Assembly: GCA_947465765.1 (NCBI GenBank)
Contig: CANIAP010000004.1
Location: 25,613 to 89,612, forward strand
Source of the DNA: a bacterium
GTDB taxonomy: Bacteria; Margulisbacteria; Marinamargulisbacteria; SXXA01
Length of the DNA stretch: 64,000 bases
Reading direction: 5' to 3'
In this document: positions 10,979 to 36,079 of the stretch, piece by piece
How the letters are laid out: every line of letters starts with the position of its first letter
Position numbering within the stretch: position 1 is the first letter of the stretch
Made by a program: the position numbers and the translations under genes
The notes under the pieces: generated by a model
Told to the model about the DNA's origin: nothing
Database searches by the model: none
Seen by the model: the letters and a program-made list of their open reading frames with translations, nothing else

Positions 10979-11845
10979 CTAGCCCGGGATCTTTTGAATT
11001 AACGCTGACAAAATACGATTGACGTCATCAATGACCCCCTGGATGGCCGTAAATCCCCGATTGAGGAGCGCCATATCCAAAGCAACCTTGGCCACGTCGA
11101 TATTCGATGATTCCAATCGCTCTCCCAAAATTTCGCCATAGCTCCCTCCGCCCGCCACGTTCGGCGTCAAAGGCTCACCCGACGCAGCAGTTGCCATATA
11201 TGCAGCCCCTTCGCCAATGACCAGGCCTTGTTTGTTCGCGAATGACGTCAATGCAATACGATAGATCGGTACTTCAGGAGGAACATTCGTAGAGCCGGCA
11301 GAAATCGCATCTTTATTCGCTTGAAATCCACGCACCAAAACCCCGCCATCGATAAACCCAATATCGGTATTCCCGTCCGTTTGAATAGGGACCAATTCCC
11401 CAGATTCAGACTCACCCGCCGAATTCAATTTGTATCCATACACTTTCCTGCCAAACGCATCCGTCAAATATTTATTTCCAAAATCGACCTGAAATCTCCC
11501 CGACCGAGAAAACACTTTCGAGGACCCCCCTTCGAATTCCTGTGCGGACCGGGATAACATAAAAAATCCCTCCCCCACAATGGATGCATCCAAAGCTGTG
11601 CCAAAGCCAATGTTTCCTTGGCTAAAATCAGTTGTCGTCGAGCCTAATGTCATCGAACCGGCGATGGTTATCGGATTCTTAGTATCAGTACCCGCAGACA
11701 CCTTAGTGTTAAATACTGTGGTAAAGGATGCGTAAGTATACTTAAAGCCCGGAGTATTAAAGTTATCCGCATTGGAAATTCCAATACGTAGCGCCTGGGT
11801 TAATCCCCCAATTGAATTTTGAATATTTTTATATAAATCAAACAT
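10979..11845 (-). CDS. flagellar basal-body rod / hook family protein (FlgE/F/G-like), divergent
   Basis: These segments follow the block order of E. coli FlgG as I recall it: N-terminal GLTQALRIGISNADNFNTPGFKY; SQGNIGFGTALDASIVGEGFFML; FSRSGRFQVDFGNKYLTDAFGRKVYGY; IYRIALTSFANKQGLVIGEGAAYMAT; C-terminal LESSNIDVAKVALDMALLNRGFTAIQGVIDDVNRIL. GGGAGAAG SD upstream. Confidence 0.8.
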   Translation of the reverse strand: MFDLYKNIQNSIGGLTQALRIGISNADNFNTPGFKYTYASFTTVFNTKVSAGTDTKNPITIAGSMTLGSTTTDFSQGNIGFGTALDASIVGEGFFMLSRSAQEFEGGSSKVFSRSGRFQVDFGNKYLTDAFGRKVYGYKLNSAGESESGELVPIQTDGNTDIGFIDGGVLVRGFQANKDAISAGSTNVPPEVPIYRIALTSFANKQGLVIGEGAAYMATAASGEPLTPNVAGGGSYGEILGERLESSNIDVAKVALDMALLNRGFTAIQGVIDDVNRILSALIQKIPG

Positions 11846-14857: not shown

Positions 14858-14886
14858 AATTTCACCACCGTTACCGCAAAATCAAG

Positions 14887-17334
14887 CTACTTTTTCGAAC
14901 CCGCTCTCTCTTGAGATTCCCTACGTGCACGCTCTTCTTGCATCCGCTTATTTGCTTCGGCTTCCTGACGCATTCGCTCTTCCCTTGCGCGTTGAATTTG
15001 GAGTTGTTCGTCTTGGCGGCGTTGATTTTGAGACTCAATTTCCTTGATTACCCGTTGAATTTCACTCAACTGATAATCGTCCTTCGCTACCTCATAGTCG
15101 TCCTTCTTTTGACGATGTTGATTACGTTCCATTGAGTTGGTCGCATTCCGACCAAACATTGCTACCGCAACAGTATGAATAACTTTACCCTGTAATTTAT
15201 CCGCCACAGATTTCCATTCCGGGCTGTCAAACAGTTGTCGATCATAAAGGGAATCAATGGACAGCCGATAATTAGAACTCTTATCGGTAATCATATTAAC
15301 CGAATCAGTGGACCCCGAATTATCAACCAACATCCGAAAAGGAACCCCCCCTTCTTTTTTAACATCCGGACCGAATGTCCCAACCACTGGCTCTAACAAC
15401 GCCATCAATACCCGAATCTGATCTTTAAATGCAGATGCATCTTTTGGCGTATCAAACGTCATTGTTACGGGCCCCTGTTTCTGGATCCATCCCGACTTAT
15501 TATCCCATTCCTTCCAAGACCCGTCCGACGACACCGTCACTTTCAGACGAGAGCCCTCCGTTCTCGTCACCACTTTGCCATTCGAATCATTACTCTTATC
15601 GAGTCCCGTCATGATCGAATGCATATCAAACAACGTGTTATAGACCATCTGCGCATTCTTCACTTGATCGTAAGGGGTATTCACACCTCTCAACATATCA
15701 ATCAATTCAGGCAATGTTCTCATCGACCCGTCCGCTGCGGGCACGCGAATATCCGACCGCTTAAGCCCCCCCACCAATGTCTTATCCTGAATATCCAAAC
15801 TAAACGCGCCCACCGCCGACTGACGCAACACATCTCGAACCCGCTTCTTTTCGCCCTCACTAAAATTAATCGCCAAATTAAATTTAGGGTCCGAAGGATC
15901 AAATTTAGACGTTAACTTACCGGAAGCATCCAAATACCCCTTGTCCTTTAAATCATTAAAAATAGACTGTCCCAACTTGGGATTTTCTGCCCCAATCAGG
16001 GCTGGCGTCACCCGGCTATCTCCTTGGAATTTGTTGAACACATAATTCTTTGTCGCATAATTAAGATACCCGCTAATCATCTGGTTCTTAAACCCAAACG
16101 AATCCCCTTGTTTGTTCAATTGAATCCGACCTTCAATCTGGTCCGCCCAATTGCCCCAATCTTTCATGGTTTGCATTAATGGAGTAAACGACGCCAACAA
16201 TCCAAAAGGAAGGACTTCAGCCTCATTCAACCCTTTTCCCACATTGCTCCACCACCGATCCACATTGTCCATCATTTTGGTGGTTCGCTTTGAATTGTCC
16301 GCCATCAAATCTACTGCCGATTTCCCTGAAACGGAATCGGAATTGGACGAAATAGGCGCATCGGACGCCTTTCCAACGACTTCACGAAGAACGTCATCCA
16401 CCCGAGTAGATGCTTCCCATAATCGATTGACGAATGAAAACATTTTGGAATCATCCCAAGTCGTCCACAACTGAGAGCTGACTATCGTGTGGAAATTCGC
16501 AGTGATATCAAATGTTTTGGATTTATTATCACTATACGGATCTGCGACACCCTCCCAATTGAGTCCAAAGTGATTTTTCCCATAGGGGTTTTTAAATTTA
16601 TTGAGTTGATCAAGGGGCAATGTGGACACATTGGTTCCTTCAATCGAAGTGACACCATCGTTAATCATCGACCAAAATTTAGGGTCTAATTTTTCCAAAA
16701 TATTTCGAGGCGTCATCGACTGATCGTGCAACGCACTAAAATAGGGGCTTTTTTGAAACCGTTGATAGTTGACGGTATCTCCCTCCTTAATGGGATTCGA
16801 ACCGATCCCATGAAATAAATTCAAATTGTGAGGAGATGTCGATTCCTTCCCGACATCCTCTCCGATCAAGTCATAAAACTGTTGCGAATACAACTGGTCC
16901 TCGATGGTCTGGACATCCTTTGACTGAGTGTATTGAGGCTTTAAAACCCCGGGTAAATACATATAATCAGAATCTTTAACCCGTTCAAAATTAAAGGTTG
17001 AATTCAGCTGGTCCGCATTTGCCAAAATATCTTGAGGCAACATACTAAGCCCCTCGTAAATTTTGGATACTTGCCGCTGCCCCATAATTTGGCGGCCTTT
17101 TTTTTCATTGTAATTGGCGATTTCCCCCGGAGTCATCCCCGACTGTTGAAGGTTAAAACTTCGACCTAGCGTTGAATTCACCTGTTTCGAAACATCTTGA
17201 AAACTCTGCCCTTGGCTTACCCCGTAGTAATGAGATCCGTCCTCGACGTCCAACAATTTCCTTGCTCGAGGATCAACTTGAGGAGGAAGCATCGTCGGCT
17301 TAATTTTTTCCTGGAATGGGTCGATATCAAACAT
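14887..17334 (-). CDS. hypothetical protein, 815 aa, with an SLH-reminiscent motif and an E/R/Q-rich C-terminal tail; no signal peptide or TM helix
   Basis: Uninterrupted ORF with SD GGGAGAGGTG 4 nt before ATG 17334. Residues 458-480, IFNDLKDKGYLDASGKLTSKFDP, match residues 778-800 of the giant protein. The last ~85 aa are almost entirely E/R/Q/K. Confidence 0.7.
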   Translation of the reverse strand: MFDIDPFQEKIKPTMLPPQVDPRARKLLDVEDGSHYYGVSQGQSFQDVSKQVNSTLGRSFNLQQSGMTPGEIANYNEKKGRQIMGQRQVSKIYEGLSMLPQDILANADQLNSTFNFERVKDSDYMYLPGVLKPQYTQSKDVQTIEDQLYSQQFYDLIGEDVGKESTSPHNLNLFHGIGSNPIKEGDTVNYQRFQKSPYFSALHDQSMTPRNILEKLDPKFWSMINDGVTSIEGTNVSTLPLDQLNKFKNPYGKNHFGLNWEGVADPYSDNKSKTFDITANFHTIVSSQLWTTWDDSKMFSFVNRLWEASTRVDDVLREVVGKASDAPISSNSDSVSGKSAVDLMADNSKRTTKMMDNVDRWWSNVGKGLNEAEVLPFGLLASFTPLMQTMKDWGNWADQIEGRIQLNKQGDSFGFKNQMISGYLNYATKNYVFNKFQGDSRVTPALIGAENPKLGQSIFNDLKDKGYLDASGKLTSKFDPSDPKFNLAINFSEGEKKRVRDVLRQSAVGAFSLDIQDKTLVGGLKRSDIRVPAADGSMRTLPELIDMLRGVNTPYDQVKNAQMVYNTLFDMHSIMTGLDKSNDSNGKVVTRTEGSRLKVTVSSDGSWKEWDNKSGWIQKQGPVTMTFDTPKDASAFKDQIRVLMALLEPVVGTFGPDVKKEGGVPFRMLVDNSGSTDSVNMITDKSSNYRLSIDSLYDRQLFDSPEWKSVADKLQGKVIHTVAVAMFGRNATNSMERNQHRQKKDDYEVAKDDYQLSEIQRVIKEIESQNQRRQDEQLQIQRAREERMRQEAEANKRMQEERARRESQERAGSKK

Positions 17335-17347
17335 GTAACACCTCTCC

Positions 17348-17674: not shown

Positions 17675-17688
17675 AATTAGGCTCCTTT

Positions 17689-18027: not shown

Positions 18028-18046
18028 ACCACTCGCCTCTTTTCAG

Positions 18047-18075: not shown

Positions 18076-18104
18076 CGCCCACGTCAGCACAATTGAACCG
18101 CGAG

Positions 18105-18141: not shown

Positions 18142-18146
18142 GATCA

Positions 18147-20697: not shown

Positions 20698-21768
20698 ATG
20701 AAGTATTGGGTCGTCGGATACTACGGGTACGGAAACACCGGAGACGACGACCTACTTACTCAAACCATTAAGGTGATCCGGTCGGCGGACACCGCCGCCA
20801 CAATCTCGATCGCATTTCCAATACATCCCCGATCCCCACTTCCCCAGGACACGCACCCGATTCACCGATTTTCCCCGTACCAGGTAATTCGTGCCGTATG
20901 GAACGCCGATGCGGTTATTTTTGGTGGGGGCGGAATATTTCAAGACCAAACATCAATCCAAAGCCTCTTGTACTACGTGAGTATCGTCATGTTGGCGGCC
21001 AGCCTACGCCGCCCAGTCTTTCTATTAGGACAAGGAATCAGTAAGCCCAAACGAAAAATAAGTGGCTACTTGATCAAACTAGCCCTGGCTCGATGCCATT
21101 GGATCGGATGCCGTGACCATGAATCGCTAGCAGAGCTCCGAAAAATGCTTACCCCCACGGCGGGAACGTTAACTGCAGACCTTGCGTTTGCTTTTCGGAC
21201 GGCGACCTTACATCCCGGGCACCGGCCCTATGTTGCACTATCGGTCCGGCACCCCAATCAGCCGCTCAATTGGGCCCCCCTTCAACACTTTATAAACCAT
21301 TCCAGCTATCCCATCATTGGACTTTCTTTTGAGGCCCCTCAAGATGATCTGGCGATCCAATACTTGTTTGACACCACAACAAAAACAGCCCCTTCCATCA
21401 TTGCCATTAACACCCAATTCCCCAAAGCCGACCTCGCCTCAGGAGTCCCCGAATTAGTCATCGCAATGCGATACCATGCGTGCGTCTGGGCGGCGTTAAA
21501 CGGGATCCCCTTTTTAGCGATTGCGTACGACGATAAGGTCATCGCAATTGCCCAAGAATTAGGCCAACCCGTTATGGATCTCCGCCACACTAATCCGCCA
21601 CCCAGCCTCTCGATAGCGGTTGCCGCAGCGATCCAAAATCAGGCCTCCCTTAAGGCACAATTGTGCCAGACCCTTCCGGGTCTCTCACGACGCGCCCTCA
21701 TCAACCAAGAGGGAATATCCGATTTCGTTAGAGACTCAGGTTGTCGCAACAAAAGGGAGCCCAACTGA
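20698..21768 (+). CDS. csaB: polysaccharide pyruvyl transferase CsaB
   Basis: MKYWVVGYYGYGNTGDDDLL, IFGGGGIFQDQTSIQSLLYY and LLGQGISKPK follow the CsaB pattern (GYYGxxNxGDE...GGGsLlQDxTS...qGiGP). Confidence 0.75.
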   Translation: MKYWVVGYYGYGNTGDDDLLTQTIKVIRSADTAATISIAFPIHPRSPLPQDTHPIHRFSPYQVIRAVWNADAVIFGGGGIFQDQTSIQSLLYYVSIVMLAASLRRPVFLLGQGISKPKRKISGYLIKLALARCHWIGCRDHESLAELRKMLTPTAGTLTADLAFAFRTATLHPGHRPYVALSVRHPNQPLNWAPLQHFINHSSYPIIGLSFEAPQDDLAIQYLFDTTTKTAPSIIAINTQFPKADLASGVPELVIAMRYHACVWAALNGIPFLAIAYDDKVIAIAQELGQPVMDLRHTNPPPSLSIAVAAAIQNQASLKAQLCQTLPGLSRRALINQEGISDFVRDSGCRNKREPN

Positions 21769-21779: not shown

Positions 21780-24700
21780 CTATTTGAGAGACCCTGCCAT
21801 TTTCAATTTTAATACGGCAATTTTATTCGCCCTGGCCTTGACCTTTGCCATCAAGTCTTTTTCTAACTCAGAGGTTTCTTCACGGTAGCCTGCGACCGAC
21901 ACCTTAATTGTCCCCAGAGTCGCCATCTGTTGTGCCGCCATCCGTTGTCTGAAGGGGAACCCGATCAAGGCCTTCACTTTTTTAACATCCGCTGACCGAG
22001 ACGACTCCCACGCCTGCCCAATTATGGAATCAGGAAGCGCTGCATTGACCGACGATATCGCCATCGCAGTCCCATCCGACCGCCCGGATGGAACCAAATA
22101 ATCACCGGCATTTACGGGGCCAATGACCTTGACAGGGACTTGGCCCATAAACGAAGTCAGTGCCATTTGGTCTAGACGATCCGCCTGCCAGTTCCCGGCT
22201 ACGACCGGCGCAGAACTAATCACCAACAACTTATGCCGACCGCTCGTTTGAAAGGACACCTTCCCAGTATCTACACTGACAACATCCCCAGGTTGAAACG
22301 AATCCGAGGCAACAAGCTTATCCACATACTCGGCGTAATCCGCCTCAGGGGAGGTGAACTGAACCCCACCGGACCCATCTCCTTCAATCGAACCAATGAC
22401 CTCCGGATCGTAGGTAGGATAGGCGGGATTACCGAACCGATCCTTATTGTTGGCGATAAAGGATACAAAATTAGAGTTAGTCGAATTTCCGAGATTTCTT
22501 ACCGCCACACCGTAAAGAGGATGGCTGATTGCGTTGCCCGTGACGGTCACCAGTACGGTGTGGTTACCTGTGGCATGAGCTGTTCCTGACGGATTACTTG
22601 TCGACACTACATGTAACGCCGCCTCAGGATTCGCAGTACCAATACCCACCCCGCCTTGAAGGGTATAAGTCACTTTACCCGCTTGAATAGCAAATGGATC
22701 ATCCGCCAGCTGGGTCCGTAGATTTTCAGGCGCAATATAGCCAGTCACTGCAACTGAGAAATTCGCCGTAATGCCTCCTTGGGTTACGCTTGGTTGAGTA
22801 TAACCCACCAACAATCGTGCATTGGGCTCCGCAGTATTCCCTTCCCCAACCGCCATACGCAATTCGCTCCAGCCACCAGACCCTGTGTCACCGTAGATGT
22901 TGTACCGCCCAATATACATCGGATCTTTATTATCACTGTCGATAGTACTCACAAACGTAGGTCCACCCGACAAATACACCCGAGAACCCCATCCTTCGGT
23001 TCCGGCAAACACTGAATTGGTAATAACCCCCAAGCGAACATCCCCACTGACATACAAGGCGTCATTCACAAGCACCGAACTCGTAGCCACCCCATTGTAG
23101 TAGGCACCGACAACGACCATGCCACTTGTGCTAGTCTTAGCCGACGTATTGGCGCTTACCTCCAACATCACTATCCCATACGTTTTTGTGGCGACCCCAT
23201 TACCATAATCCACTCTCAACTCGTACCCGGGCCTTGTATACTCTTTGAATGCGAGAACTGAGGGGGTACTCATGGCAAGTGCTACCCTATTAGACGAGGT
23301 AGATGGGTTCGCATACCGAGCGACAAACCGAATGACATCCGCAGACGCCACGTTCGTCGTTACCCCACGATAATCCATCGCCTGTATCAGCAGTGCCGCA
23401 GCGGTTGCAGATTTTGCATCGTCCGTGGACCCAATTGCAACTTGTCCACCGGTAAATAGCGCGGGATATTTCAAGCCTCCTTTGGACCCGCCGGGCGTAA
23501 TCGGATCGAATATATTCATCGAAGCTACATCGACGTTCACCCCAACCACATAACGTTTAATACCAGGAGCACCGACAGTCCCACCCGCCGAAGAGGTGAC
23601 GCCCAACGACATCCCAATAACGTTAAGGGGGAAATCGGCGTCAATCGTTAAATAATTCCGCTGAAGCTTCGCCTTGGTCGCGGATACACTTCCAGGCGCA
23701 GTCTGAGTCAACGTGAGCACCGGACGCCTCGCAGTCGTGTCGTTATCCGTCGCAACCAACTGATTGGTACTTACCGACGCTGCAACCAAACTGCCATAAT
23801 TCCCGTTGGATGAGGATATCCGAGCATTGCCGCTCACGACAAGAGCAAGAGTAGAATTAGAGGTGCCGATACCCACCCCAGCAGAATTCACGATAAAATA
23901 GGAGGGCCCACTCACCACTTTCAGAATCGGATCCGTACTTCCCGAGATGGTCAGTAACGCATCTGAAGTAACCGTTCCGATCGATACCCTATTTTGATAA
24001 AGCTGCATGTCAACCACGCCATTTTCGATAAACGAGACAGAGGACGTCGGAACGTTGAGCCAACTCAAAACACTGTCGGCCGACTGGCCATTCGTGGTGA
24101 CACCCACAAATAGATACCTATTTTCGGTCACCGCTAAAATTCCTGGTGAAAACGTCGCAGCCGTAGCGTTGTACAATGTCGGTGTAAGGGTACCTGGAAT
24201 GGTGACGCTACCAGTTCCCGCCCTCAACGCAACCCTCGCGAAGAATCCCGCATTCGTTGTCGTGCCGTATACACCTGCCTCGCCATTTCTAGAGACAATC
24301 AATACATTATTAACGCTGGCCACCAGAAATGGGAAGGTCGGTGACGCGACAGGCGGATTAAACGAGACGTCTAACGCGTACACGGGTGAAATCGTCCGAA
24401 TACCCACTCGCCCCGCCGAATCCACAAGGAATTTAGAATCAACGCCAAGGGCCGCGTTATCCGAAGTGATCTGCATTGCAAAACTTGATCCATCGCCGAG
24501 TATATGGAGCGTGGCTGACGGAACGTCCGTACCAATCCCTACCCTATTTTGACTGGATATCGACATAATATTACGGTTTGAACTGTCTTTAATATCTAAA
24601 ATCCCACCCGCCGAACTCGCTAACGCTTTAACGTGCAACGCCGCACTGGCCGGTGGCGTTCCAATAGACACTCTTGCGTCAGACGTGCCCACTACCAACA

Positions 24701-27700
24701 CATCCGATATCGAGCTCGAACCACCAACGGCAAACTTAACCGATTTAGATTTATCTCGAGGAGCAAAGTTACCCGCCGCTTGCGAGTTTGGGTTTTGACC
24801 CAGAGAATGGGCGGTACCACTATACAGATCGGATACATGGAGCACCGCGTTTGGATTAGCGGTGACGTAACTACTCCCAAAGTCCTTCAAAAATATCCCG
24901 ACGTTCCCTGTAGAATCTCCCGCGTTATCGACTAAGAATATAGCCGCCGCCTTTTGACCGAGAATTGAGAAATCCGACCCAAGGGGTAACTCTGTTGAGT
25001 TTTTTGCATATATTTTTGTCAAATCCACCCGAAGCCCAACGGCGATATCTTCTACACCCGCCTGTACCCTGGCGACATTGCCTGATGGAAACACAATCGA
25101 CATCCCTCCAAAATCATCCGTTGAGCCATTAGTCCGAGCACCAAAGTCCATTTTAATGAGTTCCCCAGTGAAAGACCCGTTGGTAGTTCCTATGTTGGAG
25201 GACACCGTCAAAACACGTTGGCCTACACCACTCGACGGATTATACGAGGTGGCAATTGCGTTGACTGACACGACCCTAACCAACCCGTTAACCGTCCAAT
25301 TTAATCCATTTGGAGATGACGTCAGCTGCGAGTCCGAACCGTAATACGGAAAAACATTCCCCGTGCCGGACATCGCCCGCGTGATATTGAGAGACACGGT
25401 TGGGCCCCCATTGTAGACGTACAGCAAGTCAAAAGAGGCCGTTTTCGCTACCGAAAGGACGCCATACCCAGACTTAAACGCCCCAATGCTTGCCGATGCA
25501 ATCAGCAGTGTCGACGCGGTCATATTCCCGGTCACGTTCACCGTCGGAGCCGTGAACCTAACCGTGGGCATTACCAAAACAAGGTCAGAATGTAATTCAT
25601 TGGTTGAAACCTGATTATTGGTAGAAATTGAACCATCAACCCACAAATTCCCCCCAATCGTCACAAGCCCATTACCCGACACCGCCAACGAATAAGAGCT
25701 ATTCACAGTCGCACTGCCAATTGCAATCCGATTCGCAGTAACCAGAGTTGCGATCAAATCGGACGTCACATTCAACGTTGCTGCTGGAGCCAGAACTTGC
25801 AGATTAATCGTTACCCCATTACCCGACCTGAACTGAAGGGTATTGGAAACGTTAATCTCTGGCCCAGCCGCTATATTATCAACAAATAACAACCCATTAA
25901 TACTCACGCCCTTGACCGATCCGGAGGCAACCAAACCATTTACCGTCACTCCATCAAGATCAAAATCCGCACTAGCCACCCATAAATTATTACCCGCCAA
26001 GGCGCCGGAAATATCTAGCACGGACGTCGGTAAGGTCGTCCCAATCCCGACGTTTCCCCCATTCAAAATCAGAGAGTTGGCACTGACATTCGTCGTCGGA
26101 GATATATAGATCCCAGTCAATACCCCATTGGACCCCAACGCCAATCCGCTTCCATCCACATTCATCCCCACCGCCGCGACACTCGCTCCGGTACCCCCAA
26201 AGGTCGCCAACGCTGCCGATGTAGCAACAAATTCCACGGCCGTTATATTTCCTGTTACCGACCCCGTCGTGTTTATACTCACGGTTTCCATCGTAAACGC
26301 CGCAGTTAAATTACCTGGCCTCAAAAACGATCGGCTCAATTCTAATTGCGCAGCAGGCGCCGTCGTTCCAATTCCGACATTACCTTCGGCCGTAACCACC
26401 AAGCCCCCATTACTTCCACTAATATCGATTGTCTTTGGAACAATTCCACCCGTTGCTTTCAACGTGGTCGCTTTTCCTTGTCCATTTACCCACAACCCGC
26501 TACTTGGCGCCGTCGTTCCCCCAATGACTACCCCTCGATTAGGGCCGACTATTATCCCAGCCCCGCCACTATTGTAGATTCCTAATGTATCCGTTGTGCC
26601 ATCTATCCCGTTCACTACCAACCGGGACGTCCCCATATTTACCGAACTGCCCACTCCCACCGATCCGTTGTTCGACACAATCAACAAATCCCTAAGCACA
26701 CTATTGACCGTACTTTGTACAACAAAGTCGCCGCGTCCGTTTACCGTCACTACCGTCGCGATATACAAATCCGCCAAACCTCTGATCGGGATATTCGGAC
26801 TCGTTACGATCACCACGTTCCCACTCGTCTGTTTTCCGCTCATAAACACCGCAGGTATCATACTTCCCGTTATTTTTTCTCCAAATCGATTCGTTACACT
26901 GCTTGATACGCCAGCAAACTCAACGATCACGCCCGCGGCGATATCGCCGGCACTCGTACTCAATTTATCCAGGCTATTTCCCATTTTCACTGACATTGCA
27001 TTAATCGTTGTCGCATTACTTGCACTTCTTGCGCCTACTTCAAGATCTACTGCATATACTGTCGTTCCACTCGCGGATATCGTCGGGATTTGTGTCATTG
27101 TCTTTAATATCGCCGATCCGCTCACTCTTTCCAGTGATGAAGCTGTACTACCCACTCTCAGCATCCCAATAGTGTTGTTAACCGTCACATCCATATACGC
27201 ATCCGAAGACAATTGTCTCGACGTATTAAAATACCCCATCCGATTCCCTGAACCGACCAATGTATTACTAATATTAGCCGTAACGCTCGCCACTCTGTTT
27301 ACATATATTAAATTGTTTTGACTTGCACTATCGACATACAAAAATGAGTCCATTGTCGGGGTCGCACTCGGCGCCGCGGTCGGTTTTAAACCCAACGTTT
27401 TCGCAGCCCACGCACCACTACTCACCACACGTCGATTCGTGGTTACAGCGCCGACAATATTGAGCTGACCCGACACACTAATCGTATTAACGGTCACTGC
27501 GCCGTTGATCGTTACAGCGTTCACAACCGCGGATCCGCTCACGATTAACGCGTTAGCGGTCCCCCCACTCCACAAATTCATATCCGCATTAAACGTCGGA
27601 ATCACCAATCGGTTAAACGTCGCTACCACCGACGACAAATCACCCACCGTTATGATCGGATACATTAAACTCCCCGGAATACTATTTACCAAATCGGCGC

Positions 27701-30700
27701 TAATCACCAACGTATTTACGGTAACGAGACCTCTATTCTCCAGCACGTCCATTACACCATCGCCACTCACAAACATTCGATTTGCCGTTACTTCTCCGAT
27801 CGACCAGTCAATTGGTGTCGTTAAGATGACGTTCCCACCACCCAGTGTTCCGCCCACTTCCAACGCCGCCTGTGGACTCGATATCCCAATCCCGACTCCG
27901 CCTCCCATAAATAGAGCGGACTTCATCTGGTTGTTTGAGGTGGCGACAGCAACCTTCACTCCATACAACACAGAATTTGAATGGAGATTAAGTCCAGACA
28001 AATCAATATTCAATCCAGACACCTTAACTGGCGTTCCAGCCTGACCAAAATTTCCCCCCGAATTCGATGTAACGACAATTTGAAGTCCGATTGAATCCAA
28101 CGGCACGTCACCCCCAAAATCACCCAAAGCTGTTTCGAAACGTGACGACATTAAAGAATAAGGGGCCGTCAAATCCGACGGCAAATTAAATGATTTTTTC
28201 AAATGATGCTGAGCAACAGGAACTGATGTCCCCATACCTACGTATCCATTGGATAGAACAACAAACAAATTGGAGGTCGTGATTCCGATGGTATCCGATG
28301 TCAGAAGACCGTTAATACTAGCGATTGCTGCATTTAGAGTCCCCACAACTTGAAGTTTGACACTCGGCTTAGATGTCCCTATTCCCACATTATCCGCCGG
28401 ATCGATATCAAAAAGTGGCAAGAGTTGCGCCGACATCACACTAACTCTTCGGTCTCCAGGTCGAGGCTCAATAGAAAGTGGGGCTACAGGCGATTCCGAA
28501 TTAATACCCACGTCCCCATTTCTACTCACGATTAGCTCATTATAAGTAGCGCCATCTGAATCGAGAATAGTAACCCGAAGAGCCGCCTGTCTTTCTTTGT
28601 TCAAAATATACATGTCGCCAACATTTGGAAGAGAGGCCAGCGAACTACTTGTCGCTACAATAAGAACATTTGAGCTGGAAGCGCCCGCAGTAAACACCGC
28701 CGCCATCTTGCGTCCGGTAATCACTTGCCCTGAGGGGGAATAAGTCAATGTTTTCAAGTCCGACGACACCCCCACCGATACGCCGACTACAACATCCTGA
28801 GCTGACACACCTGAAGTTGAAACCATCAATACATCGATACCCACAAACGTCGTCGACGACCCAGTAGTACGAGCCCCTAGTTCAACAGAGACGCCTTCTG
28901 CAGACACCGAGCTTTGAGGAGTAGTACTAGACACCCCGGATACCACCTGAAACATCTGTGTACCTGGAACAAATCCAAACGCACCAGTCTGCCCCATGGA
29001 CAATACATTTTGGGTTCCGGCACCCACTATCGAATCCCATTTTGCAAACAACGTCCCATTCAACACATTTTTTTCACTAAAAAAAGGAATCGACGGACTT
29101 GGTACCACTTCCCTCCTGCCGAAATTAGCGACCAAACTGGAACCATCTTGAAACGTCGCCAAATTAATATTGCCTGACGCGTTAGAAAATAATGAAAAAT
29201 TACCGGACGTCACGTTAAATGCCGCGATGGGTTTCATTGATAACTGCCGCAAGATCGCAATCCCGGAAAGACTCATTGTAGGCTGAACGTTGGTCGTCAC
29301 TTCAAAAGCAACAGACGTACCCACGACACTCGAGGTCAATAGCGCATTTGCGGATACCCGACCTGAAACCAGTAGCCCGCCATTTATAGCTAATCGGCCA
29401 TCCGGAATCGAGGTCCCTATCCCAAGATCCCCGTTACTCGTCAGCCGCATCCGCTCCATTGGCAATCCAGTGTCAGGATCCGTGATAAACAAAAGATGAT
29501 GAGACCGCTCTCGCTCCATACCACCGGAAACATCAACATCCCCCAACGCGACAACACCAGATCCGATGTTTTCTCCAAGTGATGTATCAGGAACCAATAA
29601 TACCCCCACCCCAACCCCGGCAACCGATGATGGATTTTGTGCAACGACGCCATTCCAAGTCTGGAATAAACTGGCGTCAAACCTATTGCCAGGGTTGGGA
29701 TCCTGGCCGTCGAACATTACCTGCAAAGGGGTCAGCGGATTTGAAACATTAACCCCAACACGCCCATTGCCCCCCACAACGAGATTAGAGGTATTCACTA
29801 CCAAAAGACCTGTATAGACGGCCCGATTTACCGTCACCGCCCCAACAATCATCCCGCCCACCACACCCAATGGATTGCTCCCGCCCAATTGTCCTACTCC
29901 GAGCGTATTAAACGTCGCCGTATTGATAGTAGAAATGCCAATGGACACCATATCCACACTTTTAATCATATTCACCGAGACTGTATTAAGTATCGCCTCA
30001 CCAGATACATTTAGCGTAGTCGTCCCCAACTCAATGGCATTTAATGCGATGAGGTTATCCAACCGCACATCATTCGTTACAACCATCGCAGCAGCGATAA
30101 CATCATTTAAAACCAATAAGCCCCTGGGAACAATCAATCGATTAAACGAAGCCACGTTAATCTGCTGCAAGAAGTTGGCTGAAGGTGCATCTGTACCAAA
30201 GATCGTTCCCTTAACCTCTAACGGCGAAGTAGGGTTGGAAACACCAATTCCGACGTTTCCCCCGATAAATACAGTCGCATTGCGAGATGACCTCGAGTCA
30301 GATACTTTGACATCAATACCGACTGCAGTTCCGGTAGGAGTCAACGCCAACCCCGTTAAATTCAATCTAATACCATAGCCTTTTGCCGCAACGGTGTCTG
30401 ACCCCAGTCGATTACCAAAGGTTGTGGAGCCAGAATTCACCGCATTCAACGTAATTCCAACCCCAGTTACCGGAACCACCACAGGTCCGTTATTGCCAGT
30501 CGATATAATTTCAACGTTATAAAAAGAATAAGGTCCCACAATAGGATCCCCAAATTGGCGATACAAATCAAACAAGGCAACGGGTGTCGACAAACCGACG
30601 CCCACCAATCCAGTATTCGTTACAACGAGCCCGCCGGAGGTAGTATTCAAAAACTGCGCAATGACCCCTCGGGATGAACGGGCACCAACACTTGAAATGG

Positions 30701-33700
30701 AACCGACTACTTCAAGCGGCACGGAGGGATTAGAGAGGCCAATTCCCACACGATTCGGCGAATAAATCGACATCCCATTATTCTCCACATTAATGGTGCT
30801 GATTATTAATCCGTTAGATATTTTAAAAAAATTAGATATAACCGTGCCTCGAACCTCAAGTTCTACACTTGGAGTCGCACCTATCCCTACACCGGCCCCT
30901 GCTCCCGCCATAAAAATCGCAGGAAACCGATATCCTCTGTCGCCGACGTCCTGAACCGTCACATTAGAAACATCAACAGAGAGCCCATAGGCTGTCCCAT
31001 TTTTAGTAAATAAAGTCGACTGAGATCCAACCCTAGAATTACGAAGAACAATGTCCTGACCCTTGATTACGAACGGCCGATCTGTTGGGCCTACATTATC
31101 GTTCCAATCTTGTGCGCCGTTGGGCCATCGGTCGATAACACCGTATATTCCAACAGAATTAAATGCGCCTGACCGAGAAATATCTTCATCGTAAGTTCCG
31201 TGAGACACCACTCCCAGTGCCCGAGATCCATCCAAGGGCATCACACTCCAATTATGACTCACCGTGTAAGTCGAAGCTGAGATTTTGGCGCCCAATGCAA
31301 CCGGTGCAGTAACCACCAAATAACCGGCAACAGCCCCAACCGGGGAGACCCAAAGCAGAGGGGCTTCTGCCAAAATAGTCAGCGTATTAGATGCCCCAAT
31401 CGCCCACTCAGCAAGAAACCCCTTCGGGCCACTCCCTGAAGTTAACACTTTCGAAATATTGATAGTTTGCCCCAATGAATCGTCCATTACGAGATCATTT
31501 CGGTCGACATAAAGCTTAATGTCACTCTGCGCAACCGAATCCCTCAAATAATGATAGTACTCCGTCAACCCATTTTCTAATCTAAATTCATCCGAAATAA
31601 TAAACGAATTACCCCCGCCAGCCACGACGTTAATGGTCCCCGCCACATCCAACGCATATTCAGGAACCGTCTGCCCAATGCCTACAAAACTGCTGGCATC
31701 TCCAACGACAGTGTTCCAGTAAATATCGGTTCGTCCATTGCCTCTATCTAGACTTGGCCATCCATATATCGATCCCCGAACGGCCAACGCCCCAGCACTC
31801 ATTTTGCTTACGCCAACCGTATGTGTAGGTGCTGACTCAAATCCTTTAATCCGAACCTGCCCAGAAATAGCCGTTTTTCCTGAGTTCTCTAACTCAGCAC
31901 GGGGACGAGTAGTCCGAATACCAACGTACCGATTGTAAATAGATAGTGGCGGAATTGAGGAAATCGATGACTCCCCACCCGGAAATATCCTTAGGACATC
32001 CGTATCAAACCGAGACACCCCAATACTAAATAGGTCAATATTATTAAGATCATATGTCAGTACGGGACTAATAAAGGGACCACCTGGGGATAATAGGCTG
32101 CTTCTATTAGACAGCTCCAATGTGAAATTAGGGGACGTTGTTCCCACGCCGACGTTGCCTACTGCCGCTATCCGACCATCAGAAAGGACATTTGCAGAAG
32201 GAAAAAAAATGTTGGGCGTGGTTCGCTCCCATTGCCACACTTCGGGCGAATTACGAGTCGGCAAGGTTTGTCCATCTGGAAAACTAAATACGTTGGTATA
32301 AATTTTGCCTTCTACATCTAGAAACCACGCCACGCTTGGAGGGGTGCCTACCAACTGAGAATTGGTTGCGCCACGCGCCGCAAGGTCTGGAAACCGACCG
32401 ATACCAATATTCGAGGATGCACTCACCATCATTGATGGAGACGCTAGTTTTGAACGATTAAAATATACCGCCAACAGATCACTCGTCACCCGAGATTGCA
32501 TCGCAAGAATCGCAGAACCGGCAGGCGAATTTACCGACATATTTCTAGACACTAACAACCCTATAGACCGAGACGGTTGCATTCCAATCCCAACGCCACC
32601 GGCATTACTCACGGCAAAATACGATCGATCCCCAATAAAATTAAATATTAGTGAATAATAAGTCGATTCCAGCATCTTCCGAATCGCCAGCTCAAACCCC
32701 GACGACGACGCCCCAGAGGCAAAAACAAGAGGAATACCGGGTCTAAATTTCGAGGAAAGTATACCCGATGAATCGATATACCCTGCAGCAACCAAGTCAT
32801 TAAAAACCCTCACAGAAGCGGACCAATCAATCGAGTCCCAATTCGCAGAATAGAAATAGTCACTATTCGTACCCACACCGGAATACCCTAAAATCGATGT
32901 GGGGGTAATACGAAGGCCGGCAACGGTTAACGCCGAGTACCGTATCTCACTACCAAACTCCCAAAATGTGGACGAGGTTCCAATCCCGACGCCCTTGGTC
33001 GCTCGAATCAAGACTTGGTTCTCTGTAACGGACGAAAAACCCAGCGGTGAGCTCCCATCCGCCCAGACCCATACCCCATGATGAAGCGCTAACGCCCCCC
33101 GCCCCATGGCCAAAGAAAAGTCTCCCTGCGCCTTATTAAGCTGCCCACCGATAATCGTTGAATAGGCGCCAGAGGCCTGGTTACGATCACCTCCGATAAC
33201 AGCAGAAAAATTTCCGCCCGCAAAGGGGTTAAGTCCCATCGCAACGGAATAGAGCCCAATATTAGAGTCATTCCATTCCGCCCCACCCATAGGGGAGTCG
33301 ACCGTAATACTCCCTGCACGAAACGCCGCTTCTCCGGGATGAAACGTCAGCCTCGTCCCCGCCCCGGCAACGTCAACCGTCACACCGGACTCAACCGCCC
33401 CCGACAAAATCAATCCAGAATCACCTTGAACATGTAAATTTGCTTTTGGATTACGAAGCCCCACACCAAATCGGTCATCAAACGCGACAAACAATGGGGT
33501 CGCACTCCCTATAGAGGTTCCTCGTTCCACCCGAAAAACTTCGTCATCTTTAGCGCTAATCCCTAACGTATAACTGGATTGCCCCGAAAGCCCCAAGCGG
33601 GACGTAAAGGTAACCGCTGGATTTTTAGTTGGCTCATCCGCATCTCGGTTCGGAGCAGCAATATCAAGAAGCGTCATCGGATCCGGCCGCCCAAGCCCAA

Positions 33701-35126
33701 CGTTACCATACAAATAATACAAATCGTTGACGTTATTACGTAACCAAAATGTTCCCTTGGAGATACTCAGCCGAATCGGAGTTCCATTCACATACAAATC
33801 CTGGGCGTTCATAACACCGCCCACAGAGAGCCGGGACGACGGCGCATTGGTCCACACTCCGATATCCCCGGAACCAACAATACTAAACAGAGGCTGATTT
33901 AGCGTCGATACCACATTAAAATACGGCGCGACGACCGCCGTCGGCCCCGAAATTTCTAGGAGCGTTTTTGCTGGCCCCCCAACGCCCAAAAATCCACTTT
34001 CCTTTGTATAAAAAATGGGCGCCGCATTGGCCACTCCTGGCCGAATCCCTTGCGGCATAAACACAGCCAATCGACCCGGACGGCCGTCGGATTTAAAGCC
34101 AGTCAATGACACCCAATTCCGAGTCGTGATTCCAGACTCGCCCCCAATATCTGTATACCCCTGAAAATCTTTGCCTGATTCAACAGACGCGAATCGAATC
34201 GTTCCTGGAACCGTTTTATCTGTGATATCGATCCGAACACCGCCTCGAATTTCCAGTGCTTCCGCAGGAACCGCAGTACCGATACCAACGCGACCCGACC
34301 GATTCAAATAAATATTGGCCGTACTAGCAGAACTTTTCAACCAATCTTGGGATGCCGATAATTTTCGGCCATTTAGTAAAAACCCATATGCATTCAATGT
34401 CGTTGAAACATTAAGCGCGAATACCGAAAAATCAGACCCCACCGCCACCGCAGGGTACACCGTGTAAATATTATTGGGACTTCCCGGAGATACCCGCCAC
34501 GGTAGCCGATCGCGAATATCCACGCCGGCCGCAGTAAATTGAGTTGCGTTAATATATCCATCCACATCTAGGGGAAATAAAGGCGCCTGATTCAAAATCC
34601 CCACCCGGCCAGTGGTACTCTGAACATAAAGCGCATTTTTTGAAGTTACATTCAGAGATCCATTGATGATAAAAGGACCTTTAAACGTTCCCTTTATTGA
34701 ATTACCTTCCACCTTTTTAGCATAACTCGCGATGTCGGTATGAATGGAAAACGGAGTCGCTGAAATGGGAAATGTCGCGACATCCCCGGCAGCAGCAATC
34801 TGAAGAATCAATGGCGCGTTTGAAAACACCGATGATGGGATCACCGCCGATGGGATCTCAATCGCAAACTGTCCTCCCGAAAATTTTACAGAAGAAGTCG
34901 GCGAATACGTCCAAACGACCGTATTGCTAGTAGGAACAATTAAGCTGGCCGTCACAATAAACGCCCCCTCCAGAAGACGCCCGTGTGACACAAAATAGTC
35001 TGAAAACTGTACCGGAGCCGCACCAACAAAGCCGCTAAAACATAACGCGATTGCCAGAATACAAGAACTTAAATGAATCCGACGCGTATTAAATCGCGAT
35101 TTAACGTACGCAATAAGTGGATGCAT
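21780..35126 (-). CDS. giant (4448 aa) secreted tail-fibre-like / beta-solenoid fibril protein with a reiterated GxVGIGT..P...L.V.G motif
   Basis: Single uninterrupted frame. ATG 35126 is preceded by GAGGAG (4-nt spacer); the ORF track begins at in-frame GTG 35138. The N-terminus has a basic stretch plus hydrophobic core (SSCILAIALCFSGFVGAAP), consistent with a signal peptide. About 29 copies by eye of G(N/R)VGIGT..P...L(E/D/H)V.G, a YadA-head-like SxAxG segment, and a conserved C-terminal ADYAEY...GDVV...GQVPVKV...GDYL domain. Confidence 0.9.
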   Translation of the reverse strand: MHPLIAYVKSRFNTRRIHLSSCILAIALCFSGFVGAAPVQFSDYFVSHGRLLEGAFIVTASLIVPTSNTVVWTYSPTSSVKFSGGQFAIEIPSAVIPSSVFSNAPLILQIAAAGDVATFPISATPFSIHTDIASYAKKVEGNSIKGTFKGPFIINGSLNVTSKNALYVQSTTGRVGILNQAPLFPLDVDGYINATQFTAAGVDIRDRLPWRVSPGSPNNIYTVYPAVAVGSDFSVFALNVSTTLNAYGFLLNGRKLSASQDWLKSSASTANIYLNRSGRVGIGTAVPAEALEIRGGVRIDITDKTVPGTIRFASVESGKDFQGYTDIGGESGITTRNWVSLTGFKSDGRPGRLAVFMPQGIRPGVANAAPIFYTKESGFLGVGGPAKTLLEISGPTAVVAPYFNVVSTLNQPLFSIVGSGDIGVWTNAPSSRLSVGGVMNAQDLYVNGTPIRLSISKGTFWLRNNVNDLYYLYGNVGLGRPDPMTLLDIAAPNRDADEPTKNPAVTFTSRLGLSGQSSYTLGISAKDDEVFRVERGTSIGSATPLFVAFDDRFGVGLRNPKANLHVQGDSGLILSGAVESGVTVDVAGAGTRLTFHPGEAAFRAGSITVDSPMGGAEWNDSNIGLYSVAMGLNPFAGGNFSAVIGGDRNQASGAYSTIIGGQLNKAQGDFSLAMGRGALALHHGVWVWADGSSPLGFSSVTENQVLIRATKGVGIGTSSTFWEFGSEIRYSALTVAGLRITPTSILGYSGVGTNSDYFYSANWDSIDWSASVRVFNDLVAAGYIDSSGILSSKFRPGIPLVFASGASSSGFELAIRKMLESTYYSLIFNFIGDRSYFAVSNAGGVGIGMQPSRSIGLLVSRNMSVNSPAGSAILAMQSRVTSDLLAVYFNRSKLASPSMMVSASSNIGIGRFPDLAARGATNSQLVGTPPSVAWFLDVEGKIYTNVFSFPDGQTLPTRNSPEVWQWERTTPNIFFPSANVLSDGRIAAVGNVGVGTTSPNFTLELSNRSSLLSPGGPFISPVLTYDLNNIDLFSIGVSRFDTDVLRIFPGGESSISSIPPLSIYNRYVGIRTTRPRAELENSGKTAISGQVRIKGFESAPTHTVGVSKMSAGALAVRGSIYGWPSLDRGNGRTDIYWNTVVGDASSFVGIGQTVPEYALDVAGTINVVAGGGNSFIISDEFRLENGLTEYYHYLRDSVAQSDIKLYVDRNDLVMDDSLGQTINISKVLTSGSGPKGFLAEWAIGASNTLTILAEAPLLWVSPVGAVAGYLVVTAPVALGAKISASTYTVSHNWSVMPLDGSRALGVVSHGTYDEDISRSGAFNSVGIYGVIDRWPNGAQDWNDNVGPTDRPFVIKGQDIVLRNSRVGSQSTLFTKNGTAYGLSVDVSNVTVQDVGDRGYRFPAIFMAGAGAGVGIGATPSVELEVRGTVISNFFKISNGLIISTINVENNGMSIYSPNRVGIGLSNPSVPLEVVGSISSVGARSSRGVIAQFLNTTSGGLVVTNTGLVGVGLSTPVALFDLYRQFGDPIVGPYSFYNVEIISTGNNGPVVVPVTGVGITLNAVNSGSTTFGNRLGSDTVAAKGYGIRLNLTGLALTPTGTAVGIDVKVSDSRSSRNATVFIGGNVGIGVSNPTSPLEVKGTIFGTDAPSANFLQQINVASFNRLIVPRGLLVLNDVIAAAMVVTNDVRLDNLIALNAIELGTTTLNVSGEAILNTVSVNMIKSVDMVSIGISTINTATFNTLGVGQLGGSNPLGVVGGMIVGAVTVNRAVYTGLLVVNTSNLVVGGNGRVGVNVSNPLTPLQVMFDGQDPNPGNRFDASLFQTWNGVVAQNPSSVAGVGVGVLLVPDTSLGENIGSGVVALGDVDVSGGMERERSHHLLFITDPDTGLPMERMRLTSNGDLGIGTSIPDGRLAINGGLLVSGRVSANALLTSSVVGTSVAFEVTTNVQPTMSLSGIAILRQLSMKPIAAFNVTSGNFSLFSNASGNINLATFQDGSSLVANFGRREVVPSPSIPFFSEKNVLNGTLFAKWDSIVGAGTQNVLSMGQTGAFGFVPGTQMFQVVSGVSSTTPQSSVSAEGVSVELGARTTGSSTTFVGIDVLMVSTSGVSAQDVVVGVSVGVSSDLKTLTYSPSGQVITGRKMAAVFTAGASSSNVLIVATSSSLASLPNVGDMYILNKERQAALRVTILDSDGATYNELIVSRNGDVGINSESPVAPLSIEPRPGDRRVSVMSAQLLPLFDIDPADNVGIGTSKPSVKLQVVGTLNAAIASINGLLTSDTIGITTSNLFVVLSNGYVGMGTSVPVAQHHLKKSFNLPSDLTAPYSLMSSRFETALGDFGGDVPLDSIGLQIVVTSNSGGNFGQAGTPVKVSGLNIDLSGLNLHSNSVLYGVKVAVATSNNQMKSALFMGGGVGIGISSPQAALEVGGTLGGGNVILTTPIDWSIGEVTANRMFVSGDGVMDVLENRGLVTVNTLVISADLVNSIPGSLMYPIITVGDLSSVVATFNRLVIPTFNADMNLWSGGTANALIVSGSAVVNAVTINGAVTVNTISVSGQLNIVGAVTTNRRVVSSGAWAAKTLGLKPTAAPSATPTMDSFLYVDSASQNNLIYVNRVASVTANISNTLVGSGNRMGYFNTSRQLSSDAYMDVTVNNTIGMLRVGSTASSLERVSGSAILKTMTQIPTISASGTTVYAVDLEVGARSASNATTINAMSVKMGNSLDKLSTSAGDIAAGVIVEFAGVSSSVTNRFGEKITGSMIPAVFMSGKQTSGNVVIVTSPNIPIRGLADLYIATVVTVNGRGDFVVQSTVNSVLRDLLIVSNNGSVGVGSSVNMGTSRLVVNGIDGTTDTLGIYNSGGAGIIVGPNRGVVIGGTTAPSSGLWVNGQGKATTLKATGGIVPKTIDISGSNGGLVVTAEGNVGIGTTAPAAQLELSRSFLRPGNLTAAFTMETVSINTTGSVTGNITAVEFVATSAALATFGGTGASVAAVGMNVDGSGLALGSNGVLTGIYISPTTNVSANSLILNGGNVGIGTTLPTSVLDISGALAGNNLWVASADFDLDGVTVNGLVASGSVKGVSINGLLFVDNIAAGPEINVSNTLQFRSGNGVTINLQVLAPAATLNVTSDLIATLVTANRIAIGSATVNSSYSLAVSGNGLVTIGGNLWVDGSISTNNQVSTNELHSDLVLVMPTVRFTAPTVNVTGNMTASTLLIASASIGAFKSGYGVLSVAKTASFDLLYVYNGGPTVSLNITRAMSGTGNVFPYYGSDSQLTSSPNGLNWTVNGLVRVVSVNAIATSYNPSSGVGQRVLTVSSNIGTTNGSFTGELIKMDFGARTNGSTDDFGGMSIVFPSGNVARVQAGVEDIAVGLRVDLTKIYAKNSTELPLGSDFSILGQKAAAIFLVDNAGDSTGNVGIFLKDFGSSYVTANPNAVLHVSDLYSGTAHSLGQNPNSQAAGNFAPRDKSKSVKFAVGGSSSISDVLVVGTSDARVSIGTPPASAALHVKALASSAGGILDIKDSSNRNIMSISSQNRVGIGTDVPSATLHILGDGSSFAMQITSDNAALGVDSKFLVDSAGRVGIRTISPVYALDVSFNPPVASPTFPFLVASVNNVLIVSRNGEAGVYGTTTNAGFFARVALRAGTGSVTIPGTLTPTLYNATAATFSPGILAVTENRYLFVGVTTNGQSADSVLSWLNVPTSSVSFIENGVVDMQLYQNRVSIGTVTSDALLTISGSTDPILKVVSGPSYFIVNSAGVGIGTSNSTLALVVSGNARISSSNGNYGSLVAASVSTNQLVATDNDTTARRPVLTLTQTAPGSVSATKAKLQRNYLTIDADFPLNVIGMSLGVTSSAGGTVGAPGIKRYVVGVNVDVASMNIFDPITPGGSKGGLKYPALFTGGQVAIGSTDDAKSATAAALLIQAMDYRGVTTNVASADVIRFVARYANPSTSSNRVALAMSTPSVLAFKEYTRPGYELRVDYGNGVATKTYGIVMLEVSANTSAKTSTSGMVVVGAYYNGVATSSVLVNDALYVSGDVRLGVITNSVFAGTEGWGSRVYLSGGPTFVSTIDSDNKDPMYIGRYNIYGDTGSGGWSELRMAVGEGNTAEPNARLLVGYTQPSVTQGGITANFSVAVTGYIAPENLRTQLADDPFAIQAGKVTYTLQGGVGIGTANPEAALHVVSTSNPSGTAHATGNHTVLVTVTGNAISHPLYGVAVRNLGNSTNSNFVSFIANNKDRFGNPAYPTYDPEVIGSIEGDGSGGVQFTSPEADYAEYVDKLVASDSFQPGDVVSVDTGKVSFQTSGRHKLLVISSAPVVAGNWQADRLDQMALTSFMGQVPVKVIGPVNAGDYLVPSGRSDGTAMAISSVNAALPDSIIGQAWESSRSADVKKVKALIGFPFRQRMAAQQMATLGTIKVSVAGYREETSELEKDLMAKVKARANKIAVLKLKMAGSLK

Positions 35127-35149
35127 CTGACTCCTCACTCAACAAATGA

Positions 35150-36079
35150 TCAAAAATTAAGCGCAAGGGAAAAATAGTGGATACCACTATACTCGGGATG
35201 ATCACTATGTTCATACGCATAATCAAATTGATTTCCGAAAACATCAATTCCAAGCCCCATCGAAACTTTACCCCTAATTGCGCTCAAAACAGGAAACTCC
35301 TTGTAGCCCCCTGACACACGGATAAATGGAATGAAGGACGGAGTATAAATGAGGGCAGCGCTTTTAGCCAGCCTCTTTGAGCTCCCTAGAATCTTAATTT
35401 GCCCCATCACATCCACATCGCCAATCGCAAACCGGGTACCGACTATCGTCTCTAGCGGCAAATTTTCAGTCATCCCATTGGAGTATTGAACCTTTAAACC
35501 TGTCGCAACATTCCTAAGCAATAACGAAACCCCGACACCATCAGCGTCGTACAACACCCCCGCATCAAAATTAACGCCTGTCCCCGTCACGGAATCAATG
35601 ACTGTACTATAATAAGTGGCCGCAACCCCCAGATGAATCCGCTCGGATTGCGAAATAGAATATCCAATTTTATACACTGACTTTGTTAAAGAAAACGAGC
35701 CATCCTCCACCAACCGCTCCAAAGTTGACCCCGCATTAACAAGGCGCGCCCTTGGAATATCTGCAACGCCCACCGTATTAAACCCAATTCCAAAACTCCC
35801 CATGGCAGTCGACATCCCCACCGCGCCGTTGGTGTAAGGAACCTCTCCCATCAAATTAGTAGAAAATAATGAGAGAGATGACGATTGAATACGAAACAAC
35901 GCCGCGGGATTCTCAAATACGCTGTCCCCATTAGAAGAAAAACCCTCAATCCCGCCAACCCGAATACCACGGGCAGAAGATCCGATTTCAGTCCCCATAA
36001 AATAGTCCGCATCCGCAAACACAGAACCGCTCACCATCATGACGCAAACCACAACCCATAATCCGAAGAAAGTTTTCAT
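35150..36079 (-). CDS. outer-membrane beta-barrel protein (PorV / UPF0164 / PorP-SprF-like)
   Basis: Signal peptide MKTFFGLWVVVCVMMVSGSVFA|DA, an ENPAAL motif near the N-terminus, alternating-hydrophobic strands throughout, and a C-terminal ...YFSLALNF ending in Phe (beta-signal). The start overlaps the upstream stop (ATGA). Confidence 0.7.
   Translation of the reverse strand: MKTFFGLWVVVCVMMVSGSVFADADYFMGTEIGSSARGIRVGGIEGFSSNGDSVFENPAALFRIQSSSLSLFSTNLMGEVPYTNGAVGMSTAMGSFGIGFNTVGVADIPRARLVNAGSTLERLVEDGSFSLTKSVYKIGYSISQSERIHLGVAATYYSTVIDSVTGTGVNFDAGVLYDADGVGVSLLLRNVATGLKVQYSNGMTENLPLETIVGTRFAIGDVDVMGQIKILGSSKRLAKSAALIYTPSFIPFIRVSGGYKEFPVLSAIRGKVSMGLGIDVFGNQFDYAYEHSDHPEYSGIHYFSLALNF

Follow-up and report, generated by a model that had tools for sequence, protein, structure and literature searches.

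Among the described systems closest to the element considered here, S-layer homology (SLH) domains occur as three copies and carry a conserved (I/V)TRAE-type motif after an F.P element, LAGLIDADG domains are well larger than about 55 amino acids (aa), and the small mobile modules known as domain-of-unknown-function (DUF)-type repeats have FIVAR as an example. CsaB and SLH co-occur across diderm Terrabacteria as an outer-membrane tether, and OmpM homologues are present in Margulisbacteria (bioRxiv 10.1101/2021.05.31.446380). Here we analyse a motif shared by two large proteins that are encoded in a 64,000-nucleotide stretch of an uncultured bacterium of the lineage Marinamargulisbacteria (SXXA01; assembly GCA_947465765.1, contig CANIAP010000004.1, positions 25,613 to 89,612 of the forward strand), hereafter the window. 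The first protein has 815 aa (14887..17334, minus strand) and the second is a giant fibre-like protein (21780..35138, minus strand; 4452 aa from its GTG start, 4448 aa from the ATG at 35126). A preliminary description of the window had compared the shared motif with the core of an SLH domain. Our results argue for another reading: the motif is very probably the conserved core of a real, small and autonomously folding module that is distinct from SLH and lacks a description in Pfam, NCBIfam or PDB. Taken as a whole, the data are best explained by an undescribed mobile structural or adaptor mini-domain, a reading to which we give a probability of roughly 0.7.

The core of the motif is located at 15895..15963 on the minus strand in the 815-aa protein (residues 458-480, IFNDLKDKGYLDASGKLTSKFDP) and at 32739..32807, likewise on the minus strand, in the giant (residues 778-800, VFNDLVAAGYIDSSGILSSKFRP). 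These are the positions given in the preliminary description, with the addition that both peptides are minus-strand encoded; plus-strand translations at the same coordinates are full of stops. The two cores are identical at 14 of 23 positions, one more than the 13 originally counted, and the four conservative positions reported besides are confirmed. When the 815-aa protein and the giant were compared over their whole lengths by BLASTP, a single stretch aligned significantly, 458-506 with 778-826 (19/49 identical residues, E 4e-6), and it extends through the looser tail that had been noticed behind the core. No second similarity between the two proteins was found by BLASTP below E 5, as the preliminary description had also concluded. 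Its view that the proteins share a module rather than common descent over their whole length agrees with our data, since only a segment of about 50 aa aligns and the same module recurs in many unrelated architectures.

The full module extends beyond the core. In the 815-aa protein it covers 15811..15981 (minus strand, residues 452-508), as defined by an AlphaFold2 model and a profile envelope of 449-519, and in the giant it covers 32652..32834 (minus strand, residues 769-829), as defined by an AlphaFold2 model of residues 766-841 and the match of a leave-giants-out profile at 775-827. A profile made from the 815-aa family only (16 orthologues) matches the giant at 777-800 with 12.2 bits, against maxima of 0.9-3.6 bits in 180-300 shuffled giants. 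With a 64-sequence profile free of any giant, the window giant was matched at 775-827 with 29.3 bits (shuffle maximum 6.1 bits). A six-frame scan revealed no third copy of the motif in the window; with twelve related loci added to it, which makes 297 kb and 2213 open reading frames in all, the module was found only in 815-aa orthologues, FlgD and giants. The motif is not low complexity and is not common locally, so the concern that it might be common low-complexity sequence, raised together with the original observation, finds no local basis.

Both copies in the window were also placed relative to the wider family. Over its 26-residue core, the giant module shares 58% and 54% identity with modules from two unrelated proteins; the value for the 815-aa copy is likewise 54%, and the median over 202 module instances is 37%. 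The window copies are thus not nearest neighbours, a relation that would have pointed to intragenomic exchange, as the giant module is equally close or closer to modules of unrelated proteins. By these identities the two window copies are no privileged partners of each other.

Module instances define a unit of about 55 residues with the consensus S..(I/L)W..L...GY(I/L)D..G.(I/V)...F.P....F.L.......I..(I)L. It starts at its N-terminal side with an amphipathic helix (S..IW..L...GY), which leads into a tight turn with a beta bridge ((I/L)D..G.(I/V)); an F.P loop that includes a short run of hydrophobic residues (F.L) comes next, and a second helix (I..(I)L) follows. We define the family as a 'GY(I/L)D' helix-turn-helix-like mini-domain. 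Over 211 instances, the columns of highest information are S10, I13, W14, L17, G21, Y22, I23, D24, G27, I29, F33, F40, L42, I55 and L59, all of them core or turn positions. AlphaFold2 prediction of the 815-aa protein, using an alignment of its own family, gave a mean predicted local distance difference test score (pLDDT) of 67.6 overall and of 80-90 across residues 451-510, with the module modelled as a helix (452-464), a beta bridge (468/474), a loop and a second helix (493-508). For residues 766-841 of the giant, predicted from a 71-sequence alignment of diverse instances, mean pLDDT was 82.8; the model contains a helix at positions 7-20 (residues 772-785), a bridge at 23/29 (788/794), a loop and a helix from position 50 (about residue 815). 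Both window copies are predicted to have the same topology, with the elements at the same aligned positions. The preliminary description had named unrelated predicted structures as an outcome that would speak against a shared module; as far as the two segments are compared with each other, the models agree.

Searches for a known relative of the module returned no family or fold match in Pfam, NCBIfam, PDB sequences, PDB folds or BFVD folds. With Foldseek, the best match of the module against PDB had an E-value of 2.1 and nothing was below E 0.7 against BFVD. In PHROGs, a single family of unknown function (phrog_11902) was touched by 3 of 71 instances (best E 2.5e-4), which raises the possibility that the module may also occur in phage proteins. 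The Pfam family Tla3_N weakly matches the FlgD module, at 20 bits and under the cut-off of 24.7.

To describe its distribution, an exhaustive HMMER search with the module profile covered 1.84 billion representative proteins and identified 147 carriers at E<=1e-3, including 18 at E<=1e-10. Carriers range from 66 to 7394 aa, have up to 11 matched stretches each and include giant proteins of Margulisbacteria and Omnitrophota; sources named among the carriers are Margulisiibacteriota, Omnitrophota and the alphaproteobacterium Candidatus Hepatincola. Pfam scans of 93 smaller carriers were used to list partner domains. The largest set consists of histidine kinases with HATPase_c, HisKA and HisKA_7TM domains (n=14), in which one or two modules, mostly two, lie between the phospho-acceptor and ATPase domains, followed by Res subunits of Type III restriction enzymes (ResIII + RE_endonuc, n=9) and FlgD (n=3). 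Other partners are FliP, signal peptidase I (S26), SLT, MucBP, neuraminidase, GH26 and LamG, and modules also form bead-like tandem arrays with a period of 70-95 aa.

Location relative to the membrane differs among carriers. Hydropathy checks detected no transmembrane segment between HisKA and HATPase_c in the cytoplasmic kinase modules, and placed the signal-peptidase modules N-terminal to the membrane anchor, on the cytoplasmic side. Extracellular carriers are represented by the giants with a signal-peptide-like N-terminus. In a 295-aa membrane protein (P0182), the module lies in a loop between transmembrane segments that is probably periplasmic, by analogy with the periplasmic domain between TM2 and TM3 of FliP; this protein is probably the FliP fusion, the batch Pfam scan having given a FliP match without naming the member. 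The module is evolutionarily mobile and is present on both sides of the membrane.

Individual carriers illustrate how the module is accommodated. The seven-transmembrane (7TM)-type histidine kinases (P0063, P0060, P0070 and about 11 others) have an insertion of about 235 aa between HisKA and HATPase_c, an unusual site for an insertion in a kinase core, and it usually holds two modules (one in P0146). A signal peptidase I (P0091) carries three tandem cytoplasmic modules at residues 20-137, N-terminal to its anchor. In Res subunits a single module occupies the linker between helicase and endonuclease (P0125, residues 620-686; also P0111 and P0118). When a module-bearing Res protein was compared with EcoP15I Res (4ZCF), only helicase and nuclease aligned and the module sat in the unaligned linker, so that the EcoP15I structure does not cover it.

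We propose that the module would act as a self-folding structural connector or adaptor mini-domain, possibly making protein-protein contacts whose specificity would reside in the variable surface, and that it would be neither a catalytic nor a wall-polymer-binding unit. The conserved positions lie almost all in the hydrophobic core or in turns, and the module is placed between functional domains or in arrays, which makes a connector or adaptor role the most likely one. Read from architecture and conservation, this specific role has about even odds in our judgement. Several points weigh against the overall reading. The role is deduced from architecture and conservation only; the conserved aromatic residues W14 and Y22 could form a binding surface; and conserved charges in the 815-aa family module point to an interface peculiar to that family rather than to a passive spacer. 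An arginine in the second helix that is common to the 815-aa and giant families could reflect a shared lineage-specific function. The two AlphaFold2 models, too, are not fully independent, because the second alignment held some rows of the 815-aa family.

The 815-aa protein has about 20 orthologues, all from uncultured Margulisbacteria-type bacteria, with one module copy per protein. In this family L462 and G472 are invariant, G466 is near-invariant, most members read GYLD..G.(V/L)T.KFD, and conserved charged residues (DPSDP, SEGEK, RVR.VLRQ) are found in the module as well. The protein lacks a signal peptide or transmembrane-like segment and belongs to no Pfam or NCBIfam family. Comparison with PDB sequences yielded noise only (E>0.4), and Foldseek with the whole model found no fold neighbour in PDB, the best match (E 0.34, TM-score below 0.1) being meaningless. 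Its charged C-terminus (residues 705-811; window 14887-15222, minus strand) is predicted by AlphaFold as a single uninterrupted helix of about 105 residues.

The gene for the 815-aa protein is the fourth in an island of eight co-oriented genes encoding proteins of 88, 112, 108, 815, 281, 85, 600 and 288 aa. The island (10979-18413, minus strand) moves as a unit, its gene order and sizes being kept in two relatives with 61% (L001) and 46% (L002) identity. In L002 the flanks are completely different, with dnaB upstream and a nucleotidyl-transferase downstream, and an AAA gene is inserted before the last gene. This last gene (10979..11845, minus strand) encodes a 288-aa protein of the FlgE/F/G family (NCBIfam TIGR03506, 90 bits; phmmer against Margulisbacteria FlgE, E 8.5e-9). 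None of the other island proteins matched the complete Margulisbacteria flagellar operon.

The giant protein begins with a hydrophobic, signal-peptide-like N-terminus, and its module sits at 17% of the length, after a block resembling YadA heads. Giant orthologues hold the module at the same place, between the YadA-head-like block (HG.FVWGD...NQFLIRA.GGVGINT) and the next GVGIGT repeat, and keep the tail F.P...L.F......(L/F)E..IR..L including the E..IR..L of the second helix. Ten of 30 giant-family members carry the module, in general with one copy each and in one giant with more; the main copy lies at 12-22% of the length, in every case within the first quarter. In the window giant, the YadA-head/Hep_Hag-like block (32900-33220, minus strand; residues about 640-745, immediately upstream of the module) is made of S.A.G..N.A.G repeats, HG.W.W.D and NQ.LIRA. 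Some family members have precomputed matches to PF05658 (YadA head) or PF11962 (Peptidase_G2 autocleavage), and the window giant is without a Pfam match.

Immediately upstream of the giant gene lies a gene for a PorV/PorQ-like outer-membrane barrel (35150..36079, minus strand; NCBIfam NF033709, E 1e-13). On the other side, a csaB-like polysaccharide pyruvyl transferase gene (20698..21768, plus strand; Pfam PF04230, E 3e-23) is convergent with the giant gene and 11 nt from its stop. Among the contexts compared, only the window and its 61%-identical relative L001 have csaB beside the giant. Near two other module-bearing giants (P0025 and P0030) the trio of small protein, PorV-like barrel and giant is kept, with neighbours matching the PorV-like gene in size next to both giants, and there is no csaB nearby. 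The flanks of the 815-aa island in L002 also lack csaB. Adjacency of csaB to module-bearing giants is not conserved. Just downstream of P0030, a second giant gene (L003:24101-32525; over 3323 aa, running off the locus) is separated from it by an integrase and an M50-like gene.

A possible connection to flagella runs through FlgD. In flagellated Candidatus Margulisbacteria, this hook-cap protein (219-223 aa) bears the module as a C-terminal appendage (L010:10001-10660; also L011 and L012), and its gene is situated inside a complete canonical flagellar operon (flgBC-fliFGHIJ-SLT-fliK-flgD-flbD-flgE-fliLNOPQR-flhBA). Outside its own family, the 815-aa module has this FlgD module as nearest neighbour, at 58% identity, and phmmer of the 815-aa protein against FlgD P0097 gave E 9e-10 with only the module aligned. 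Outside the module, the 815-aa protein matches no flagellar family in Pfam or NCBIfam, and phmmer against the complete Margulisbacteria operon aligns only the FlgD module. The second-helix arginine, in the pattern (I/V)R..L, is present in 22 of 31 modules of the 815-aa family, 5 of 11 giant modules and 11 of 169 others; the second helices of the window modules are encoded at 15811-15858 and 32652-32696, both on the minus strand. This arginine may mark a Margulisbacteria-specific subgroup of modules, and together with the nearness to FlgD it hints at lineage-specific kinship.

How far can other explanations account for these observations? Two large proteins might resemble each other by chance or through composition, given a short motif and a giant of great length and repetitiveness, but the BLASTP E-value of 4e-6, independent profiles at 12-29 bits against <=6 bits in 300 shuffles, conservation of the motif in the orthologues of both families and 147 significant carriers database-wide refute this, and we regard it as exceedingly improbable. 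The proposal closest to the preliminary description is that the module is a divergent SLH-type or other wall-polymer-binding unit, anchoring both proteins to the pyruvylated polymer of the neighbouring CsaB and thereby delivering them to the same envelope layer. It draws on a loose likeness of pattern (L...G..D..G...F.P, then a helix), on csaB lying so close to the giant stop, on the secreted nature of the giant and on the fact that Margulisbacteria do use CsaB/SLH. Running the suggested search with Pfam SLH (PF00395) at relaxed thresholds gave no match on whole proteins (E<=1), on 94-aa segments (E<=10) or on 16 instances (E<=10), nor was SLH among the families listed for 71 instances, negatives to be read with the fact that HMMER filters drop most matches above about E 0.1. 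Two module profiles (A2 and A6) compared with all PDB chains matched no SLH-bearing chain at E<=10, and the suggested structural comparison, made by Foldseek with the giant module model of pLDDT 82.8, contained no SLH entry among the listed PDB matches. The consensus and information content of 211 instances show no TRAE-type polar motif after F.P. Moreover, the module resides in cytoplasmic segments of histidine kinases, Type III Res subunits and signal peptidase I, and since these are cytoplasmic enzymes it cannot be a dedicated wall-polymer anchor; the 815-aa protein, for its part, has no signal peptide. The link to csaB fails too, as the gene is found neither beside the two other module-bearing giants P0025 and P0030 nor beside the island in L002, and csaB in Margulisbacteria is already explained by OmpM-SLH outer-membrane tethering. 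We therefore consider wall-polymer binding very unlikely, and in the window the module is not a sign that the two gene clusters are functionally coupled or share a destination in the envelope.

Similarly doubtful, to about the same degree, is that the motif represents a degenerate remnant or relative of a nucleic-acid-binding fold, either the helix-strand unit of LAGLIDADG or the helix-plus-wing of a winged helix. The best PDB sequence matches are indeed LAGLIDADG motifs of I-CreI (AGFVDSDGSI), at non-significant E-values of 0.11-1.1; Pfam LAGLIDADG_WhiA is touched by 1 of 71 instances (E 0.12); Foldseek finds local matches of 0.5-1.1 A over 21-25 columns in winged-helix domains of DEAH and Ski2 helicases, which were the one local similarity to recur; and the module is present in Type III Res enzymes. 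However, no sequence match falls below E 0.1 and no fold match below E 2, the position preceding the turn glycine varies and holds no conserved acid, and a LAGLIDADG domain is twice as large as the module. LAGLIDADG homing endonucleases are recognised by a significant profile match and a conserved catalytic acid in the motif, and the module shows neither; in the many carriers that are extracellular fibres, DNA binding would serve no purpose. A further explanation gives the module a specific docking role towards a partner common in Margulisbacteria. It would thereby tie FlgD, the 815-aa protein and the giant fibre to a single pathway of assembly or export, either of flagellar type or derived from the hook. 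The C-terminal FlgD modules within complete flagellar operons, the closeness of the 815-aa module to them (58%; phmmer E 9e-10), the conserved island ending with a FlgE/F/G-like gene, the existence of FliP and SLT fusions and the second-helix arginine common to both families would fit such an element. Set against this, the N-terminus of the giant is of the Sec type, unlike type III substrates, most carriers (kinases, restriction enzymes, glycosidases) are unrelated to flagella, the remaining island proteins bear no likeness to flagellar ones, the giant locus is not linked to the island in L002, and the similarity between the copies is within the general family range. We judge specific docking unlikely. 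In its more explicit form, a common partner would recognise the module, with the second-helix arginine marking the interface, and a single envelope structure derived from the flagellum would receive FlgD, the 815-aa protein and the giant fibre or be the site of their assembly. This form appears to us quite unlikely as well.

With the module read as a mobile structural or adaptor mini-domain, two large unknown proteins from an uncultured phylum lose the tempting but mistaken annotation as SLH-like wall anchors coupled to csaB. This reading also defines a new and easily recognisable domain family of about 55 aa, with at least 147 representative carriers in several phyla, that could enter domain databases. 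A family entry would improve the annotation of Margulisbacteria and Omnitrophota giants, of the distinctive 7TM histidine kinases and of Type III restriction enzymes. The presence of the module on FlgD of flagellated Margulisbacteria offers a concrete, testable lead on an otherwise opaque eight-gene island with a FlgE-like end.

In comparison with known systems, the module resembles an SLH domain in being short, with a helix followed by a glycine-rich turn and F.P element and then another helix, and in that it is found on surface proteins secreted by members of a phylum with CsaB/SLH tethering. It differs in its spacing, in the lack of a conserved TRAE-like motif, in being usually present as a single copy where SLH domains come as three, and in occurring also in cytoplasmic proteins without conserved csaB linkage. 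With the LAGLIDADG motif of I-CreI it has in common the local pattern L..aG(F/Y)(I/V)D..G.(I/V) at the end of a helix and the start of a beta strand, whereas the module described here is found in extracellular fibres and has no conserved catalytic acid. The winged helix of DEAH/Ski2-type helicases offers a helix and beta-hairpin substructure that superposes locally, but only as a fragment (E>2, TM-score 0.2-0.38), and the rest of that fold is absent from the module. Giant bacterial surface proteins and multidomain enzymes contain small mobile modules that are likewise promiscuous short domains, occurring singly or in tandem and inserted between catalytic domains. Compared with such DUF-type repeats, the module shared by the 815-aa protein and the giant forms a sequence family of its own, unmatched in Pfam 2025 and NCBIfam 2026, and spans an unusually wide range of cellular locations.

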